Numbered from the stretch's first letter, positions 30,893-58,465 are shown. The stretch: DNA of 64,000 nucleotides from an uncultured Candidatus Binatia bacterium (GCA_964534275.1 CAZHQG010000002.1:140243-204242), one strand, 5' to 3'. The notes: generated by a model not told the origin, from the letters alone. Made by a program: numbers and translations.

Positions 30893-31013
30893 GCGCCAAT
30901 CCTTTCCCGAGGCAAGATGCACGGCCCCGTTTAGCCACACGAACCGCAAGATGTCCACCGCCGTTTGCAAGTGGATTCCTCGGCCGTGCCCGAAGGGTTC
31001 CGGAAGGGACGAG

Positions 31014-31502
31014 TTACGCTGGGGCAGTTCGGGGCCGGATCATGTATGTCGTGGTTGCACGCGCTGCAAGTTGGCCCGCTGCCCAAATATCGACTTCGGC
31101 ATATGCGCTACGCTTGCTTGCCCGCAGTACGAAGGCCTCGGCGGTGACCAAACCAGGAGGAATGGGCTCGAGGTAGTTGATCTTCATTTCGATCGTCAGA
31201 AGCAACGTGCCCTCTTCGTACAGAGTTGCCAAAGCAGCTGCTACGGCGGTGTCCGCCAGCCCGAAACTGGCCCCACCGTGCATCACGCCTGCCGGCTGCA
31301 TCAGTTCGAGTCGGTTTTGGACTTCCAACCGGGCGTAGCCTTGGCGAAGTTCGACCACGCGGATTCCTAAGTGGCCGGGAAAGAAGCGGTTGTCTTCGTT
31401 GAACCGGGTCGAAATGAGGCGTGCCCGCTCGGGATCGAGGGGCGGATAGTCGTGGCCGTGATTGCCAGACCTTAGTCGCTCTCCGATACGAATATGCGCC
31501 AT
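31014..31502 (-). CDS. PaaI/4HBT-family hotdog thioesterase
   Basis: ATG at 31502 (MAHIRIGERL...). The hotdog motif GVMHGGASFGLADTAV is present. Confidence 0.8.
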   Translation of the reverse strand: MAHIRIGERLRSGNHGHDYPPLDPERARLISTRFNEDNRFFPGHLGIRVVELRQGYARLEVQNRLELMQPAGVMHGGASFGLADTAVAAALATLYEEGTLLLTIEMKINYLEPIPPGLVTAEAFVLRASKRSAYAEVDIWAAGQLAARATTTYMIRPRTAPA

Positions 31503-31786
31503 GCGTACGTGCCTATCTTGCGACAAGGCTTGGGTCCAGCCAGGGGCTGCTGCAGGCCCGGAGGACCAGACGCGAGCGAGCCATGACGGGCGCGAGGCTC
31601 CTACCAGGAGGGCGCCCGAAGCCGACCGTGAGGACGGGCACACGAGTCGGACCAGGGGACCTCGTTCGAGGCAAGATTGCAAAGGAAGAACTTTGTCCGT
31701 TCCGTGCAATTCGAAGGATTTGCTTGACAAGGCGGCCGAAGTCGTTTACCGAACCACTCCTGTCAGAATTGATTTGGAAATCCGAT

Positions 31787-31873
31787 ATGCACGTCTTTCG
31801 CAAAGCACGGGAATTGGGTCTGCTTCTGGGGCTGTTGCTTCCTTGCCCGCCCGGTGCGTCTGCGGGGACGTGA
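31787..31873 (+). CDS. Leucine-rich leader peptide (28 aa, 7 Leu in a 9-residue run) of the leu operon attenuator
   Basis: It encodes MHVFRKARELGLLLGLLLPCPPGASAGT*. The Leu codons are ttg ctg ctt ctg ctg ttg ctt. It sits 130 bp upstream of leuA and is followed by a perfect terminator hairpin. Confidence 0.6.
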   Translation: MHVFRKARELGLLLGLLLPCPPGASAGT

Positions 31874-31896
31874 GTCAGGATTACGGAACCGCAAGG

Positions 31897-31936
31897 CGCC
31901 ACGGGCGGGAATCGCTGCCCGTGGCGTTTTTATTTT
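31897..31936 (+). terminator. Intrinsic terminator / attenuator hairpin of the leu leader
   Basis: The perfect 10-bp stem is CGCCACGGGC (31897-31906) / GCCCGTGGCG (31917-31926) with a 10-nt loop. It is followed by TTTTTATTTT. The leader segment CCCGCCCG (31844-31851) can alternatively pair with CGGGCGGG (31902-31909). Confidence 0.65.
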
Positions 31937-32005
31937 CGCCGCGAGCAGCTCCCTCCGGTGGCGTCGATGGAAAGGAAACCACGGAATCGAGAAGGGAGTG
32001 AAACC

Positions 32006-33559
32006 ATGAGAGAACATCAAGCGGATGTGGTGAGGATCTTCGATACCACGCTACGCGATGGCGAACAGTCGCCTGGTGCCAGCATGAATGTGGAGGAAAA
32101 GGTGTTGGTGGCCCGGCAGCTCGAGCGCCTGGGCGTGGACGTCATCGAGGCTGGCTTTGCCGCTTCGTCGCCCGGCGATTTCGAGGCAGTCGCGAAAGTG
32201 GCGGAAACCGTGACGCAGCCGGTGGTGTTAAGCCTGGCGCGCACGCGGGAGAACGACATCGTGCAAGCAATCCGCGCGGTGGAAAAGGCTCGCAACCCGG
32301 GTATTCACGTGTTCATTGCCACCTCCGACCTGCACCTCGAACGGAAGCTGATGATGAGCCGACAGGAAGTGTTGGACGCCGCCTGCTGGGCCGTGGAGTA
32401 TTGCCGAAAGCACCTGGACTACGTGGAATTCTCGGCTGAAGATGCGTCACGGTCGGACCCCGAATACCTCGTCCAAGTCTTTGGCGAAGTGATTCGTTGC
32501 GGTGCCCGGGTGGTGAACGTGCCCGACACGACCGGCTATGCGATTCCGGAGGAGTTCGGTGCTCTCTTTCGGTACCTGATTGCGAATACTCCGGGAAGCG
32601 ACCGGGTGGTTTGGAGCGCTCATTGTCACAACGACCTGGGCATGGCAGTGGCGAACTCCCTGGCTGCTGTTCGCAACGGTGCGCGGCAAGTGGAGTGTAC
32701 GGTGAATGGAATTGGCGAACGCGCTGGCAACACCTCGTTGGAAGAGGTGGTGATGGCGATCCACACGCGCAGCGACTTCTTCAAGCTGCGCACGAACATC
32801 GTGACGGAGCAAATTTACCCCGCTAGCCGTTTGCTAGCGCAAGTTACCGGGCTGGTGGTTCCGGCAAACAAGCCCATCGTTGGCGACAACGCGTTTGCCC
32901 ACGAGGCCGGGATCCATCAGGATGGAGTGCTGAAGGACAAGCAAACCTACGAAATCATGCGCCCGGAATCGATTGGTTTGCCGAGCAACAAGCTCGTGCT
33001 GGGCAAGCATTCTGGCCGGCACGCGTTTGCGCAGCGGCTCAAAGAGTTGGGGGTCGACTTGTATGGCGTGGACATGAACAAGGCCTTTGCCAAGTTCAAG
33101 GAACTCGCCGACCGGAAGAAGTTCGTGTACGACGAAGACATCCTCGCCATCGTTACCGAAGAAGCGGTGCGCGGACCGGACTACCTCGAGTTGCTGCACC
33201 TAGAGGTCAGTGCGGGCACCAACTCCGTACCCAAAGCGGTGGTGCGGCTGCGCGTGGATGGTACGGAAAAAGAGGGTGCGGCCCATGGGGACGGGATGGT
33301 GGACGCGTGTTTCAAGGCGATTTCCGACTTGGTCGGCGTGCACCCGCGGCTCGAGCGATATGCAGTAAAAGCCATTACCGGCGGTACCGATGCGCTGGGT
33401 GAAGTTTCGTGCCTCATTAGCTTGAACGGGGTGACCGCCACAGGGCAAGGAGCACACACGGACATTGTGCACGCCAGTGCCTTGGCCTATGTGAACGCGC
33501 TCAACAAAGTTCAGAATCGCCGCACGCGATACCGCCAAATTTCTGGCGAAGAGCCGTGA
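32006..33559 (+). CDS. leuA: 2-isopropylmalate synthase (with C-terminal LeuA allosteric domain)
   Basis: The motifs LRDGEQ and HCHNDLGMAVANSLAAV and a C-terminal regulatory domain are present. The RBS GGGAGTG is upstream. Confidence 0.95.
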   Translation: MREHQADVVRIFDTTLRDGEQSPGASMNVEEKVLVARQLERLGVDVIEAGFAASSPGDFEAVAKVAETVTQPVVLSLARTRENDIVQAIRAVEKARNPGIHVFIATSDLHLERKLMMSRQEVLDAACWAVEYCRKHLDYVEFSAEDASRSDPEYLVQVFGEVIRCGARVVNVPDTTGYAIPEEFGALFRYLIANTPGSDRVVWSAHCHNDLGMAVANSLAAVRNGARQVECTVNGIGERAGNTSLEEVVMAIHTRSDFFKLRTNIVTEQIYPASRLLAQVTGLVVPANKPIVGDNAFAHEAGIHQDGVLKDKQTYEIMRPESIGLPSNKLVLGKHSGRHAFAQRLKELGVDLYGVDMNKAFAKFKELADRKKFVYDEDILAIVTEEAVRGPDYLELLHLEVSAGTNSVPKAVVRLRVDGTEKEGAAHGDGMVDACFKAISDLVGVHPRLERYAVKAITGGTDALGEVSCLISLNGVTATGQGAHTDIVHASALAYVNALNKVQNRRTRYRQISGEEP

Positions 33560-33582: not shown

Positions 33583-34686
33583 TTGGTGCGCGTTTTAGTA
33601 TTGCCGGGAGACGGGATTGGTCCGGAAGTGACAGCTCAGGCACAGCGGGTACTGGAACGCTGTGCCGAGCTGTTTGGCTTGAGCCTGGAGTTCGATACCG
33701 CGGTTGTGGGTGGAGCGGCGATCGACCGTACTGGCACGGCCCTGCCGAGCGAAACGTTGAAGTTGGCGCTCGACAGCGACGCGGTGTTGCTGGGCGCTGT
33801 GGGTGGCCCGAAATGGGACGACCCGCAGGCGAAAGTCCGCCCGGAACAAGCGCTGCTCGGGTTGCGCAAAGAGCTGGGCTTGTATGCCAACCTGCGTCCG
33901 GTACGCCCCGTTCCTGAGCTTCTCGATGCCTCGCCGTTGAAACCAGACGTCTTGCGAGGGGTCGATTTAGTCGTGGTGCGCGAGCTCACGGGCGGAATTT
34001 ATTTTGGCCAGCCAAGCGAGCGTCGCGTGGGCGCGAACGGACGTGAGGCCGTGGACACCATGGCTTACAACGAGCACGAGATTGCCCGGTTGCTGCACAC
34101 CGCCTTTGGGCTTGCGCGACAACGGCGCCGCCGGCTGACGTCGGTCGATAAGGCAAACGTATTGTCCTCGTCGCGGTTGTGGCGCGAGGTGGCACACGAA
34201 GTCCGGAGGGAGTACCCCGACGTGAGCTACGAGGATGTGCTCGTGGATGCCATGGCCATGCATCTGTTGCGCCGCCCCCGCGACTTCGATGTGATCGCTA
34301 CGGAAAACTTGTTTGGCGACATCCTTACGGACGAAGCTTCGATGCTGGCTGGTTCCATGGGCTTGCTGCCTTCGGCTTCTCTGGGGGAGGCGCGCAACCG
34401 TTTGGGGTATCCACGCGGTCTGTACGAACCGATTCATGGCAGCGCTCCGGACATTGCGGGGCAAAACAAAGCCAATCCGTTGGCGGCGATTCTTTCTGCC
34501 GCGATGTTGCTGCGGCACTCCCTCGGGCACGAGGCTGCGGCATGCGCAGTGGAGAGCGCCGTCGCCCGCGTGCTCGCAGACGGGTTGCGCACTCCGGATA
34601 TCCAGCAACGAGGCTGCCGCCTGGTGGGATGCGAGGAAATGGGCGCTGCTGTAGTCGGCGCGCTCGAGGCACTGCCCCGAGAATGA
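33583..34686 (+). CDS. leuB: 3-isopropylmalate dehydrogenase
   Basis: The N-terminus [15 protein letters not shown] and the IPMDH/IDH family core are present. The start is TTG 33583 or GTG 33586. The RBS GAGGGAGAGAG is upstream. Confidence 0.95.
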
Positions 34687-35717
34687 GAAAGTCGCAGTAC
34701 AACGTCGCCATCATTGGCGCCACTGGCACTGTGGGGCGCGAGCTGGTGGCAGTTCTCGACCAACGTGGCTTCCCTCTGGGCTCTTTGCGATTGTTTGCCA
34801 GCGCGGCCTCGGCCGGTGACGAAAACGAGGTGGCCGGCGTGAGGATCGAAGAGCTCACGGGCGACACGAGGCTCAAGGACACGGATTTGGTGTTCCTCGC
34901 ATGCCAAGAAACGGTAGCGCGCGTGTGGCGTAGCCGTGCCCTCGAGGCTGGGGCGTTCGTGATCGACTTAGGCGCGGGCAATGCTGGTGCTCCATCCATG
35001 CCGCTTGTGGTACCGGAGGTGAACGCCGCAGCGCTGGCGCGCGTGCGCGAAGGGCGCCTCGTTGGCAGCCCCGACCCTGCCGCGATCGCGTTAGCGGTGG
35101 TGCTGGGTGCAGTGAGTCAGATCGTTGCAATCCGCGACGTTGTCGCAACCGTGCTCGACCCCGTTTCGTTGGCTGGGCGTCAGGGAATCGAGGTTCTGGA
35201 GCAGGAGCTGTACGACTTGCTGAACGGTCGAGAACCAGCTCCGCCGCGGATTTTTTCTCAGCGGATCGCCTTTAACGTCGTTCCCGATGTGGGCGGGGGC
35301 ACGGCAACCCTAGAAACTCGCGGGGAGCAGGTGTTGCGAGAGCACGTGCGCTTGCTGCTCGGGGACCCTGGACTTCCGGTGCACGCGACTCGTGTGCAAG
35401 TTCCCGTGTTTTTTGGGCTCTCGATTGCGGTCGAACTGCGGCTCGCGCGATCGGTGACCGTGCACGAAATCGAGTCTCACTTACAGTCGGCTCCTGGCGT
35501 CTTGCTCGTCGCATCGGGAGGCGAGGTGCAAGGTGCACCGCTGCCGTTGCCAACGCCCGCAACGGTCATGGGCAGCGATGCCACGCACGTCGCGCGTGTG
35601 CGGGTAGATCCCGAGGTCCCCTCGGTGGCTTGCTGGCTGGCAATCGACAATACCCGCAAAGGGTCGGCAACGAACGCGGTGCAAATTGCCGAGTTGTTGG
35701 TTCGCGACTACCTGTGA
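34683..35717 (+). CDS. usg: Aspartate-semialdehyde dehydrogenase homolog (USG-1-like) lacking the catalytic Cys and His
   Basis: ATG overlaps the leuB stop (ATGA). NAD(P) motif [11 protein letters not shown]. Asd-like throughout. The segment [10 protein letters not shown] aligns to Asd GIIANPNCSTIQ with Cys replaced by Pro. The segment [11 protein letters not shown] aligns to VPV(F/Y)YGHAEAV with His replaced by Leu. The C-terminus [19 protein letters not shown] is Asd/USG-like. Confidence 0.8.
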
Positions 35718-35723
35718 GCGCGC

Positions 35724-36542
35724 ATGCGCTACAAGTTGCTCGTCCAGTACGAGGGCACTGCGTATTTGGGTTGGCAAGTACAGCCGCATGGCCGGACGAT
35801 TCAGGGTGAATTCGAGCGTGCCTTGCGGAACCTCACCGGCGGGGCGGTCCGCGTTGCCGCGGCTGGGCGTACGGATGCTGGTGTGCACGCCTCCGGCCAG
35901 GTGGTGAGTTTTTCCCTCGACCGCGCTTGGGCGCCGGAGGTCCTAGCCCGGGCACTCGACGCCATCACGCCGGCGGACATTGCCGTGTTGCAAGCGGAAG
36001 TGGTACCCGACGATTTCGATCCGCGAAGGTGGGCACTAAGCCGCACGTACACGTACCGCATTTGGAACCACAGGGTAGGTTCTCCGTTTTGGCGACGTTA
36101 CGCGTGGCACGTTCCATACCGGCTCGACATCGCGGCGATGCAGGACGCGGCTGCGGTGCTGTGTGGCGAGCACGATTTTGCTGCGTTCCGCGCTGCTGGC
36201 TGTGCGGCAGCTCACTCGCGCCGGCAGGTGCTGCAGAGCACCTGGATCGGGCAGGGACCCTTACTCGTGTACTCCATCGAGGCGAACGGTTTTTTGCGCC
36301 ACATGGTGCGGAACGTAGTGGGCACCTTGGTAGAAGTCGGAAGCGGCAAGCGTTCCCCGGACGATATGCGGCGCCTGCTTGCGGCGAAGGACCGTACGCT
36401 AGCCGGGCCGACTGCCCCAGCACATGGGTTGTGCCTTTCGCGGGTCCGCTATCCCGATCCTCTCGTTCGCCCGGGACAAAAGAACGGCGCCCAGCTACGG
36501 GAGGTCACCGAGCCAGGCGCCGACACAGACGACGTTTCCTAG
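35724..36542 (+). CDS. truA: tRNA pseudouridine(38-40) synthase
   Basis: The N-terminus MRYKLLVQYEGTAYLGWQVQP and the catalytic Asp region AAAGRTDAGVHA are present. Confidence 0.9.
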   Translation: MRYKLLVQYEGTAYLGWQVQPHGRTIQGEFERALRNLTGGAVRVAAAGRTDAGVHASGQVVSFSLDRAWAPEVLARALDAITPADIAVLQAEVVPDDFDPRRWALSRTYTYRIWNHRVGSPFWRRYAWHVPYRLDIAAMQDAAAVLCGEHDFAAFRAAGCAAAHSRRQVLQSTWIGQGPLLVYSIEANGFLRHMVRNVVGTLVEVGSGKRSPDDMRRLLAAKDRTLAGPTAPAHGLCLSRVRYPDPLVRPGQKNGAQLREVTEPGADTDDVS

Positions 36543-37886: not shown

Positions 37887-39119
37887 TCACTCTGGGGCTC
37901 CAAGCCAGTACGAGGGAATGACCACAATGTTCTTGTTCGCTGCGGCTCGCGCCACTTTCGGGTCCACGGTGTAGGAGACCACGAAAACAAAACGATTTGC
38001 ACCGACGAAACCGTATTTTTCCAGTCGCTGCAAACGCTTTTCGAGTTTCGTTAAGTGTTTGAGTCCCAAACGTGCCTTGGCTTCGCCAACCACCGTGACC
38101 GTTTGCCCGTTTTGTACGGCAGTGCCGAAAATGTTCAATTCCTCTGCTCCGCCATCCGGATACTCTACCCATTTTCGCTCCAGTGCACCCTGGACCTCGA
38201 GACCGAAATGCTTTCGAAGCACTTTCGGTAAACGGAAAATGGCACGGTCCTCCAGGCCGTAGCCCACGGCGTCCGACAAGTTGGCAAGCATTTCACGTGT
38301 TTGCCGATGGTCGCGCACAAGCGCCTGCACTTGTTTGGTGAGTTGGCGAAGTTCCTGCTGCGTTTGCCGGTGCGATTCGGTGAGTTCCTTTAGGCTGCGC
38401 TGGGTTTCCTCCATCGCGGCAGTGAGCGCTGCAAAGCGGAGATCTGTCGCGTTGCGGAATTCGCAATACTCTTGATAGGCGCGCTCCTGGGCTGCCGTGA
38501 GTTCGGCGAAACGCTGGTTGGCGACTCTGCGGAACTCGGAGAATTCTTGGTATGCACGTTCCTGGGCGGCGGTGAGGCTAGCGACTGCGGCCTCGGTGCG
38601 TTGCTGGGCAGCAGCGAGTTCGGCGAAGCGCTGGTCTGTTGAGGCACGAAGCTGGGCAAGCTCTTCCCCCGTGCGCTGCTGGGCTGCAGCAAGTTCGGCG
38701 AAGCGCTGGTCAACGACTGTGCGGAACTCGGAGAATTCTTGGTATGCGCGTTCCTGGGCGGCGGTGAGGCTAGCGACTGCGGCTTCGGTGCGCTGCTGGG
38801 CAGCGGCAAGCTCTTGTACTCGGTGTTCGGTTCGGGCTTGCGCGTCGGCGAGAAGTGCGAAGCGTTGGTCGACGTGACGGCGGAGTTCCACCAGCTCGTG
38901 TTCGACACGTTCCTTCAATCGCTCGTCGGTGCGTTGCTGGGCTTCCGCAAGATCACGCAGGGCGTCACGCAGTTCTGCAAACTCAGCCTTGGTCACTTGG
39001 TCGCGCATCTCGTCGTAAAGGGTGGCCAGTGCGCGTACCAACACCGCGGCGGTATCCGGATCGAGGCTCCGGCCCGCTACGGCACTGAGTTCGGCAAGTG
39101 TGGATGCAAAGGTAGCCAC
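37887..39119 (-). CDS. Coiled-coil repeat protein with C-terminal PD-(D/E)XK-like (DUF3782-like) domain
   Basis: 410 aa. The N-terminal two-thirds consist of repeated heptad modules (FAELAAAQQRTEAAVASLTAAQERAYQEFSEFR occurs twice, plus diverged copies). The C-terminal ~130 aa read YPDGGAEELNIFG...VTVVGEAKARL, consistent with a restriction-endonuclease-like D...E.K arrangement. Confidence 0.7.
   Translation of the reverse strand: MATFASTLAELSAVAGRSLDPDTAAVLVRALATLYDEMRDQVTKAEFAELRDALRDLAEAQQRTDERLKERVEHELVELRRHVDQRFALLADAQARTEHRVQELAAAQQRTEAAVASLTAAQERAYQEFSEFRTVVDQRFAELAAAQQRTGEELAQLRASTDQRFAELAAAQQRTEAAVASLTAAQERAYQEFSEFRRVANQRFAELTAAQERAYQEYCEFRNATDLRFAALTAAMEETQRSLKELTESHRQTQQELRQLTKQVQALVRDHRQTREMLANLSDAVGYGLEDRAIFRLPKVLRKHFGLEVQGALERKWVEYPDGGAEELNIFGTAVQNGQTVTVVGEAKARLGLKHLTKLEKRLQRLEKYGFVGANRFVFVVSYTVDPKVARAAANKNIVVIPSYWLGAPE
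38461..38830. repeat. Intragenic tandem direct repeats (~180-bp period)
   Basis: Two ~100-bp copies at 38527-38632 and 38708-38806 are >90% identical (ggaactcggagaattcttggtatgcRcgttcctgggcggcggtgaggctagcgactgcggcYtcggtgcgYtgctgggcagc...). A diverged third copy lies at 38461-38525. Confidence 0.85.
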
Positions 39120-58099: not shown

Positions 58100-58354
58100 C
58101 GCGCGTGCCTGACCGTGGCGCCAAGACCGCGCACCGGACCGCTCTCCCTTCCACGGCAACCCGGTGAATTGCCACCGCATCCAAGGACCCGAGTCGCTTC
58201 ACGCACGCCCGTCGAAACGGCGGAGGAGTGTGCTGAGCCGTAGCGAGATGTTGACCTTCAGGAATCGGGATCGTGGGGACGCGAGTTCTTCACACACCTG
58301 CAGGCGCGAAGCGGCGGACTCCGGGAAGTTTGTGCAGCGCTTCCGAACGGGGAA

Positions 58355-58443
58355 CGGAGAGGGAGGGATTCGAACCCTCGGTAGAGTTTTAGCCCTACAC
58401 ACGCTTAGCAGGCGTGCGCCTTCGACCTCTCGGCCACCTCTCC
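58355..58443 (-). tRNA. tRNA-Ser (anticodon GCU), type II with long variable arm; CCA not encoded
   Basis: The reverse complement reads GGAGAGGTGGCCGAGAGGTCGAAGGCGCACGCCTGCTAAGCGTGTGTAGGGCTAAAACTCTACCGAGGGTTCGAATCCCTCCCTCTCCG. The acceptor stem is 7 bp. The anticodon loop is CTGCTAA. The T-loop is GGTTCGAATCC. Confidence 0.85.
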
Positions 58444-58465
58444 AAGCGTTAGATGGCGGCTTTGC

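Follow-up and report, generated by a model that had tools for sequence, protein, structure and literature searches.

The leuABCD operon of Escherichia coli and Salmonella is preceded by leuL, an ORF of 28 codons with four consecutive Leu codons, rare ones among them, and by a terminator located before leuA. The enterobacterial his attenuator is built of six segments, which pair as A:B, C:D and E:F or, alternatively, as B:C and D:E. In Corynebacterium glutamicum, a Leu leader peptide is found upstream of leuA (PMC4046766). The actinobacterial LEU element is a pseudoknot with the base stem pairing the Leu codons with the Shine-Dalgarno (SD) sequence of leuA; a terminator is not obvious in it, and how it works is disputed (PMC1262725). 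Mutations of the Leu codons in the leuA leader of Streptomyces coelicolor did not act as classical attenuation would predict, and binding of a protein was put forward as a model (PMC1262725); therefore, the appearance of an attenuator alone is not proof. In mycobacteria, leaderless polycysteine short ORFs act as attenuators (bioRxiv 10.1101/834739). A 2010 survey gave Proteobacteria and Actinobacteria as the only groups with leader-peptide systems known at that time, and added Firmicutes (PMC2965389). A search of the literature for RNA-level regulation or attenuation in Binatia yielded no paper.

Here we describe a leader preceding leuA of an uncultured Candidatus Binatia bacterium, in a stretch of 64,000 nucleotides (the window) with a GC content of about 62% throughout. 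It is very probable that this leader is a ribosome-mediated, Leu-sensing transcription attenuator controlling leuA, leuB, an asd-like gene and truA. The features below were computed; H1 is the terminator hairpin of the window, and H2 is a second hairpin, seen in most relatives.

31724..31729, plus strand: -35 hexamer TTGACA of the leader promoter; TTGAC(A/T/G) stands upstream of 61/61 leaders.
31747..31752, plus strand: weak -10-like hexamer TACCGA, aligned with TAGTTC/TAGCTG in the closest relatives (L001/L002) and with TATAAn/TAGAAT in the other groups.
31787..31873, plus strand: leader-peptide ORF, 28 codons and TGA, encoding MHVFRKARELGLLLGLLLPCPPGASAGT; read from the sequence, with homologous ATG mini-ORFs (20-38 codons) in about 60 related loci.
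31814..31840, plus strand: putative regulatory Leu codon cluster (TTG, CTG CTT CTG, CTG TTG CTT), unique in the window, with Leu kept in relatives.
31790..31872, plus strand: predicted anti-antiterminator hairpin formed between the two halves of the ORF, the 3' one including CCCGCCCGGUGC; minimum free energy (MFE) folds, -37.3 kcal/mol for the ORF alone.
31846..31909, plus strand: predicted antiterminator hairpin, about -44 kcal/mol; the MFE structure when the 5' edge is at 31843-31846.
31893..31930, plus strand: intrinsic terminator stem-loop H1, 16 pairs, 10 G-C pairs, loop GAAUCG (6 nt); terminator scan, folding energy -30.1 kcal/mol.
31927..31936, plus strand: terminator U-tract TTTTTATTTT; reading of the sequence and terminator scan.
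31937..31963, plus strand: degenerate remnant of H2, weak and without a T-run; aligned to the H2 columns 199-229, -8.7 kcal/mol versus about -20 kcal/mol in relatives.
32006..33559, plus strand: leuA (2-isopropylmalate synthase), the first gene under the proposed control; Pfam HMGL-like, HCS_D2 and LeuA_dimer.
33583-34686, plus strand: leuB; Pfam.
34683-35717, plus strand: asd-like gene; Pfam PF01118 and PF02774 (aspartate-semialdehyde-dehydrogenase-like).
35724-36542, plus strand: truA; Pfam.

The gaps between leuA, leuB, the asd-like gene and truA are 23, -4 and 6 nt, respectively, and the four genes probably form one operon. The start codon of the asd-like gene overlaps the stop codon of leuB (ATGA, 34683-34686), which suggests translational coupling, and leuA is preceded by the SD sequence AAGGGAG (31992-31998). 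The sequence-only reading of this DNA had singled out the order leuA-leuB-usg-truA as worth noting. The order itself holds, with 'usg' being the asd-like gene; the arrangement is not peculiar to this genome and is common in groups a and c of the related loci described below. Among 80 such loci, leuA-leuB occurs in 74, the asd-like gene after it in 45, and truA after that in at least 32, a count limited by the 3-kb flank; in group b there is no asd-like gene after leuB.

The upstream neighbor, a 4HBT thioesterase gene starting near 31503, lies on the opposite strand, and therefore the hairpin before leuA cannot be a terminator of an upstream gene. Between this gene and the leader promoter there is a GC-rich spacer of about 220 nt (31504-31723) with no convincing ORF, which presumably holds the thioesterase promoter. 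Elsewhere in the window, a 410-aa ORF on the minus strand (37887-39119) encodes a coiled-coil-like protein in which a long stretch, ...DQRFAELAAAQQRT...EAAVASLTAAQERAYQEFSEFR..., is duplicated internally. The only tRNA of the window, and its only match at the Rfam gathering score, is tRNA-Ser (anticodon GCT) at 58354-58444 on the minus strand.

Direct reading of the segment 31400-32300 bore out the ATG-started 28-codon ORF with seven Leu codons in nine positions that had been noticed earlier: the ORF starts at 31787, has 28 sense codons and ends with TGA at 31871-31873, with Leu at codons 10, 12, 13, 14, 16, 17 and 18 (31814-31840), so that the run is split as L-G-LLL-G-LLL. Its SD sequence is weak in the window (GGAA, 8-11 nt 5' of the ATG). 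Leu codons CTG, CTC and TTG are common in a genome with 62% GC, and a 500-nt intergenic region following a divergent gene makes spurious ORFs easy to find; one might thus suppose that the ORF arose by chance in GC-rich DNA and that the hairpin is a constitutive terminator or insulator. However, a search of all six frames of the 64-kb window for at least seven Leu in nine codons retrieved a single site, that of the leader ORF, and none in 20 shuffles; the upstream gene being on the other strand, there is nothing to terminate; the unit is conserved in about 60 loci with LeuA 67-93% identical to that of the window; and the hairpins covary. We regard this explanation as extremely improbable and close to refuted.

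The terminator stem-loop had been described from the sequence alone as a perfect 10-bp GC-rich hairpin about 70 nt upstream of leuA. The hairpin and its location stand, with 69 nt from the end of the T-run to the leuA ATG (32006), whereas its length had been underestimated, the scan giving 16 pairs (31893-31930). Within the 5' arm of the terminator, CGGGCGGG (31902-31909) is perfectly complementary to CCCGCCCG (31846-31853). This pairing, also proposed earlier as an antiterminator, turned out to be the outer helix of a longer hairpin (31846-31909), and its columns are about 97% paired across relatives. The longer hairpin consists of the outer 8-bp helix, a 2x2 loop, six base pairs of GCGUCU with AGGCGC, and inner stems. 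The anti-antiterminator hairpin (31790-31872) is predicted to form when no ribosome occupies the leader. The region 31750-31940 folds more stably than its own shuffles (z = -3.1).

The terminator and the antiterminator are predicted to be mutually exclusive, as the sequence-only reading had expected folding to show. When no part of the leader is masked, folding favors the terminator state over the antiterminator state by 12.8 kcal/mol. To represent a stalled ribosome, everything 5' of its leading edge was made unavailable for pairing; with the 5' part masked in this way (edge at 31830-31846), the antiterminator is equal to the terminator or better by up to 2.5 kcal/mol, so that masking the 5' half of the leader shifts the balance by about 13-15 kcal/mol. 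In a footprint model with the leading edge at the A-site plus 13 nt, the MFE structure has 0/16 terminator pairs if the ribosome stalls at any of the Leu codons 12, 13, 14 and 16. The terminator persists if it stalls at codon 10, 17 or 18, and all 16/16 pairs are present when the ribosome has reached the stop codon. A simulation in which pairing was forbidden inside the footprint alone always kept the terminator; it is misleading because it allows pairing across the ribosome. As the masked states are nearly iso-energetic, the modeled switch relies on co-transcriptional kinetics: the antiterminator can form first, before the 3' arm of the terminator is made.

Downstream of the terminator, CUCCCUCC (31950-31956), in the loop of the degenerate H2, is complementary to the leuA SD sequence AAGGGAG and paired with it in the MFE structure. 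Translational control by this pairing was set aside, as the fold of 31931-32030 is no better than that of shuffles (z = 0.33).

We scanned the LeuA query against one genome per species, all of them metagenome-assembled genomes (MAGs), and fetched the 80 closest leuA loci, the best matches being 'Bacterium HR30' (93% identity) and a Binatia MAG (92%); the scan places the window in Candidatus Binatia. The earlier reading was to stand or fall with a Leu-rich mini-ORF at orthologous loci, and such a mini-ORF is indeed found upstream of leuA in about 60 of these 80 Binatia loci. Together with it the whole unit is homologous and located in the same position: the promoter, the ATG mini-ORF with a Leu run, and hairpins with compensatory changes. 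The mini-ORFs have 20-38 codons (mode 27) and precede the LeuA motif DTTLRDGEQ by 130-210 nt. They fall into three groups: (a) window-like leaders ending in ...LGLLLGLLLxCPPGASAGA; (b) leaders with ...LGLLLGLLLSIPPEGSEGGV; and (c) leaders of Binataceae with MFCNLLPELLLSLALTGAHARRASGQV.

About a dozen Binatia loci have no Leu leader (L024, L025, L028, L034, L035, L051, L053, L057, L062, L064, L072 and L079). In these, leuA directly follows a membrane-protein gene (...FLLYTLSGPLLW...KRRREK; about 100-130 nt before leuA), and a strong hairpin with a T-run (e.g. GCTCCCGTTGGC..GCCGCGGGAGTTTTTATTTTT) is situated about 20-30 nt before the leuA start. The apparent 'leaders' of L034, L053, L064 and L079 were excluded, being C-termini of the upstream membrane-protein gene. 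Several of the contigs with clearly Binatia-like LeuA and leaders (L004, L017, L026, L039, L043, L054, L057, L061, L072, L078 and L079) carry discordant record labels, namely Enterobacteriaceae, Margulisiibacteriota, Limnocylindria, Acidiferrales, Methylomirabilota, Verrucomicrobiia and Syntrophobacteraceae, which suggests mis-binned or mis-labeled MAGs.

In 39 leader sequences anchored on an invariant CCG codon, six core positions encode Leu in 30-38 of the 39 sequences by means of three to five synonymous codons each (CTG, CTC, CTT, CTA, TTG). Retention of Leu through synonymous codons points to selection on the meaning of the codons. Rare Leu codons are enriched in the leaders compared to leuA of the same loci (CTT, 23% vs 4%; CTA, 11% vs 1%), and the last Leu codon of the leader is CTT in 50/61 leaders. 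All leaders have an ATG start, and the spacing between the in-frame stop codon and H1 is constrained. The tail of the ORF evolves differently: in L004 and L012 it reads PPVRLGGA, compared to PPGASGGA in the others, due to a one-base shift with the nucleotides otherwise unchanged. This points to selection on RNA pairing, and the tail, conserved as nucleotides and not as a peptide, is the antiterminator strand.

These patterns bear on the possibility of a separate small gene, in which the mini-ORF would encode a hydrophobic, membrane-active peptide and have a terminator of its own; its place before leuA would then have nothing to do with leucine sensing, or the peptide would act additionally in trans. 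In favor of this, the hydrophobic LGLLLGLLL segment could enter a membrane, a promoter and a terminator are conserved parts of the unit itself, and a leader peptide acting in trans is known (peTrpL, PMC7298713). On the other hand, the peptide is not conserved outside the Leu run, its N-terminal parts and length (20-38 codons) differ between relatives, frame-shifted tails are tolerated with their nucleotides retained, and the alternative pairing with the terminator arm is conserved. In addition, the unit without exception directly precedes leuA, and as no second promoter is evident, leuA can be expressed only by transcription past the terminator. We therefore consider an independent peptide gene very improbable.

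Transcription of the leader would start from a conserved sigma-70-type promoter: comparison across loci shows the pattern TTGAC(A/T/G), 17/18 nt, TAnnnn at 61/61 leaders. A strict consensus scan of the window found no promoter here, a false negative that arose because the -10 hexamer is weak, and the TTGACA/TACCGA pair was recovered by comparing the leaders. The transcription start of the window copy is expected near 31759. In 52/61 leaders the ATG follows the -10 hexamer by 7-13 nt (mode 9), and therefore most Binatia leader ORFs are likely to be leaderless or nearly so, with a 5' UTR of a few nucleotides. The window differs in this respect. A 13-nt insertion between the -10 hexamer and the ORF (window 31753-31786), relative to L001/L002, has shifted the start codon, and the distance from the -10 hexamer to the ATG is 34 nt, whereas it is 12 nt in these two leaders, the nearest to the window, and 9 nt for the majority of the family. 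The window copy is thus probably not leaderless; yet the ATG-started frame leading into the Leu run has been retained. Upstream of this ATG there are an in-frame CTG at 31760 and an in-frame TTG at 31769.

An alignment of 39 leaders (groups a and b) was scored for a set of specified structures, with S1 the ORF tail, S2 the 5' arm of H1, S3 its 3' arm, and S4 the 5' arm of H2. Controls in which the partners were moved by 1-3 columns had 33-54% of cells paired.

H1: 91.7% of cells paired; six pairs changed on both sides, e.g. 149:181, G-C 18 / C-G 13.
H2: 97.1% of cells paired; six compensatory pairs, e.g. 204:224, U-A 22 / C-G 14.
S1:S2: 82% of cells paired overall, versus 33-49% in its own shifted controls; the 8-bp core almost always paired.
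S3:S4: 95.1% of cells paired; pairing maintained by G-U wobble where H2 covaries.

At the covarying sites of H2 the pairing with S3 is kept via wobble pairs (177:205, U-G 24 / U-A 12; 178:204, G-U 23 / G-C 16). When the register of the anti-antiterminator helix in the window was moved onto the alignment, 57.7% of cells were paired, and this helix was dropped as a conserved element at the level of columns; an analogous pairing is seen in the individual folds of L004, L007 and L048. Automated detection of terminators over all loci was crude, with hairpins mis-assigned in many sequences of groups a and c, and our claims about the structures of the family rest on individual folds and column counts.

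In most relatives H2 is present and followed by a better T-run than H1, and it is likely the terminator there. The segments of these leaders form a chain, with S0:S1, H1 and H2 as the default and S1:S2 and S3:S4 as the alternatives. With its 5' part masked, the leader L004 switches in the predicted fold to S1:S2 and S3:S4, and H2 is lost. In group b (L037), both hairpins persist at equilibrium whatever the stall position, and therefore any relay there would be kinetic. The folding model thus establishes the relay for group a (e.g. L004); for group b it indicates conserved pairing potential. A strong U-tract after H1 is found only in the window, L001 and L002, the other group-a relatives having TTTGTGTTTC at this place, and H2 of the same three leaders is weak and without a T-run. 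Thus, in the lineage of the window, H1 is the terminator and S1:S2 the antiterminator, and the comparison of sequences indicates that this lineage has reduced a two-hairpin relay to one terminator.

In Rfam, no family matched the leaders searched. A search of 31000-32600 with Rfam at E<=10 gave no match to Leu_leader (RF00512), T-box or riboswitch models, and only chance miRNA- and sRNA-like matches on the hairpin; at the gathering score, the window and the leaders L001, L004, L037 and L048 matched no family apart from the distant tRNA-Ser. A T-box leader, a known riboswitch and membership in Leu_leader were ruled out on this ground. The sequence-only reading had assigned the locus to ribosome-stalling attenuation of the leuL type: with a conserved mini-ORF and mutually exclusive folds, the mechanism stands, while kinship with the leuL family is not borne out, the Rfam Leu_leader model giving no match at E<=10. 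Similarly to leuL, the window has a 28-codon ORF with a Leu run that includes rare codons, an intrinsic terminator between the leader and leuA, and an antiterminator built with the terminator's 5' arm; stalling of the ribosome would be the readout. Unlike leuL, it belongs to another phylum, has no detectable similarity to it in sequence or structure, has a split Leu run (seven of nine, vs four consecutive) and precedes leuA-leuB-asd-like-truA instead of leuABCD.

The leaders of most Binatia relatives (e.g. L004) resemble the his attenuator in that they would relay the position of the ribosome to a distal terminator through a chain of segments. In the window the relay appears collapsed, with the U-tract on H1 and a remnant of H2; moreover, the codons are for Leu and not His, and there is no sequence relationship. 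With the actinobacterial leuA leaders (PMC4046766, PMC1262725) the locus shares a mini-ORF with Leu codons directly upstream of leuA in a high-GC genome. Unlike the LEU element, it shows a clear intrinsic terminator, its antiterminator is a hairpin, and the Leu codons are about 150 nt from the SD sequence. Compared with the LEU element as described in PMC1262725, there is a strong terminator before leuA, and the fold of 31931-32030 does not surpass that of shuffles (z = 0.33); hence the locus was not assigned to this class. Finally, most Binatia sensor ORFs (52/61) may, judging from their -10 spacing, be leaderless or nearly so, like the mycobacterial polycysteine ORFs; unlike these, they would sense Leu and not Cys, with intrinsic termination as the output, and the window copy is probably not leaderless.

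The case of S. coelicolor, with its non-classical leader mutations and the protein-binding model (PMC1262725), raises the possibility that the RNA switch is genuine but responds to, for instance, a regulatory protein, an uncharged tRNA or a small ligand, in which case the Leu-rich ORF would be incidental or accessory; operation of this kind was put forward for the actinobacterial LEU element. The folding of group b, where the alternative pairings are not favored at equilibrium, would agree with it. However, no T-box or riboswitch matched at E<=10 in the window or at the gathering score in relatives, and what is conserved in the alignment falls on pairing strands and not into unpaired pockets. 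Besides, an untranslated RNA leaves unexplained the synonymous turnover of the Leu codons, the constant ATG and the constrained distance from the stop codon to H1, and rare Leu codons are enriched in the leaders. A switch operated without the ribosome is quite improbable.

The locus thus combines a cluster of codons for the end product of the operon, a terminator between the ORF and leuA, a mini-ORF conserved together with its regulatory codons, and an antiterminator exclusive of the terminator, with the upstream sequestering partner predicted in individual folds only. In the model, the antiterminator strand is left free by stalls at codons 12-16 but not by a ribosome that has reached the stop codon.

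Ribosome-mediated attenuation would proceed as follows; where transcription starts, that the ORF is translated, that ribosomes stall and how this regulates the genes are all inferred. Transcription would begin from the promoter with TTGACA at 31724 and the weak -10 hexamer at 31747, and the ORF would be translated while the leader is being transcribed. With charged tRNA-Leu plentiful, the ribosome would pass the seven Leu codons and reach the TGA at 31871, where it would cover or split the antiterminator; the terminator (31893-31930) with its U-tract would fold, and most transcripts would end at about 31936. With low charging of tRNA-Leu, the ribosome would stall within 31814-31834 and mask the leader's 5' half. 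As this half would no longer sequester CCCGCCCG, the RNA from 31846 onward would be free. The freed segment would pair with the 5' arm of the terminator as it emerges, forming the antiterminator (31846-31909); the terminator would be blocked, and the polymerase would read into leuA.

The leaders of the relatives allow for a wider reading, which we suggest tentatively. It is quite possible that the window element is one state of an undescribed attenuator family spread throughout Binatia, whose ancestor had a near-leaderless ORF and a six-segment relay (S0:S1, H1 and H2 versus S1:S2 and S3:S4), and that in the lineage of the window the first hairpin gained a U-tract and the distal terminator decayed. 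If true, this would be a natural record of an attenuator being rebuilt with its logic preserved, and would extend leader-peptide attenuation to a phylum beyond Proteobacteria, Actinobacteria and Firmicutes.

In summary, the mechanism itself is a textbook one and would only moderately surprise a specialist; what is new is a sequence family of this classical mechanism in an uncultured phylum. With it the leader-peptide attenuators gain a family of unrelated sequence, and as no Rfam 15 family matches these leaders, automated annotation relying on Rfam would miss them. Two architectures of one mechanism, the single terminator and the two-hairpin relay, stand side by side, and in most copies the ORF starts 7-13 nt after the -10 hexamer; the two traits are useful for studies of attenuator evolution and for the design of similarity-independent searches. 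For Candidatus Binatia, a group known only from metagenomes, the leader very probably provides a concrete regulatory annotation of leucine biosynthesis.
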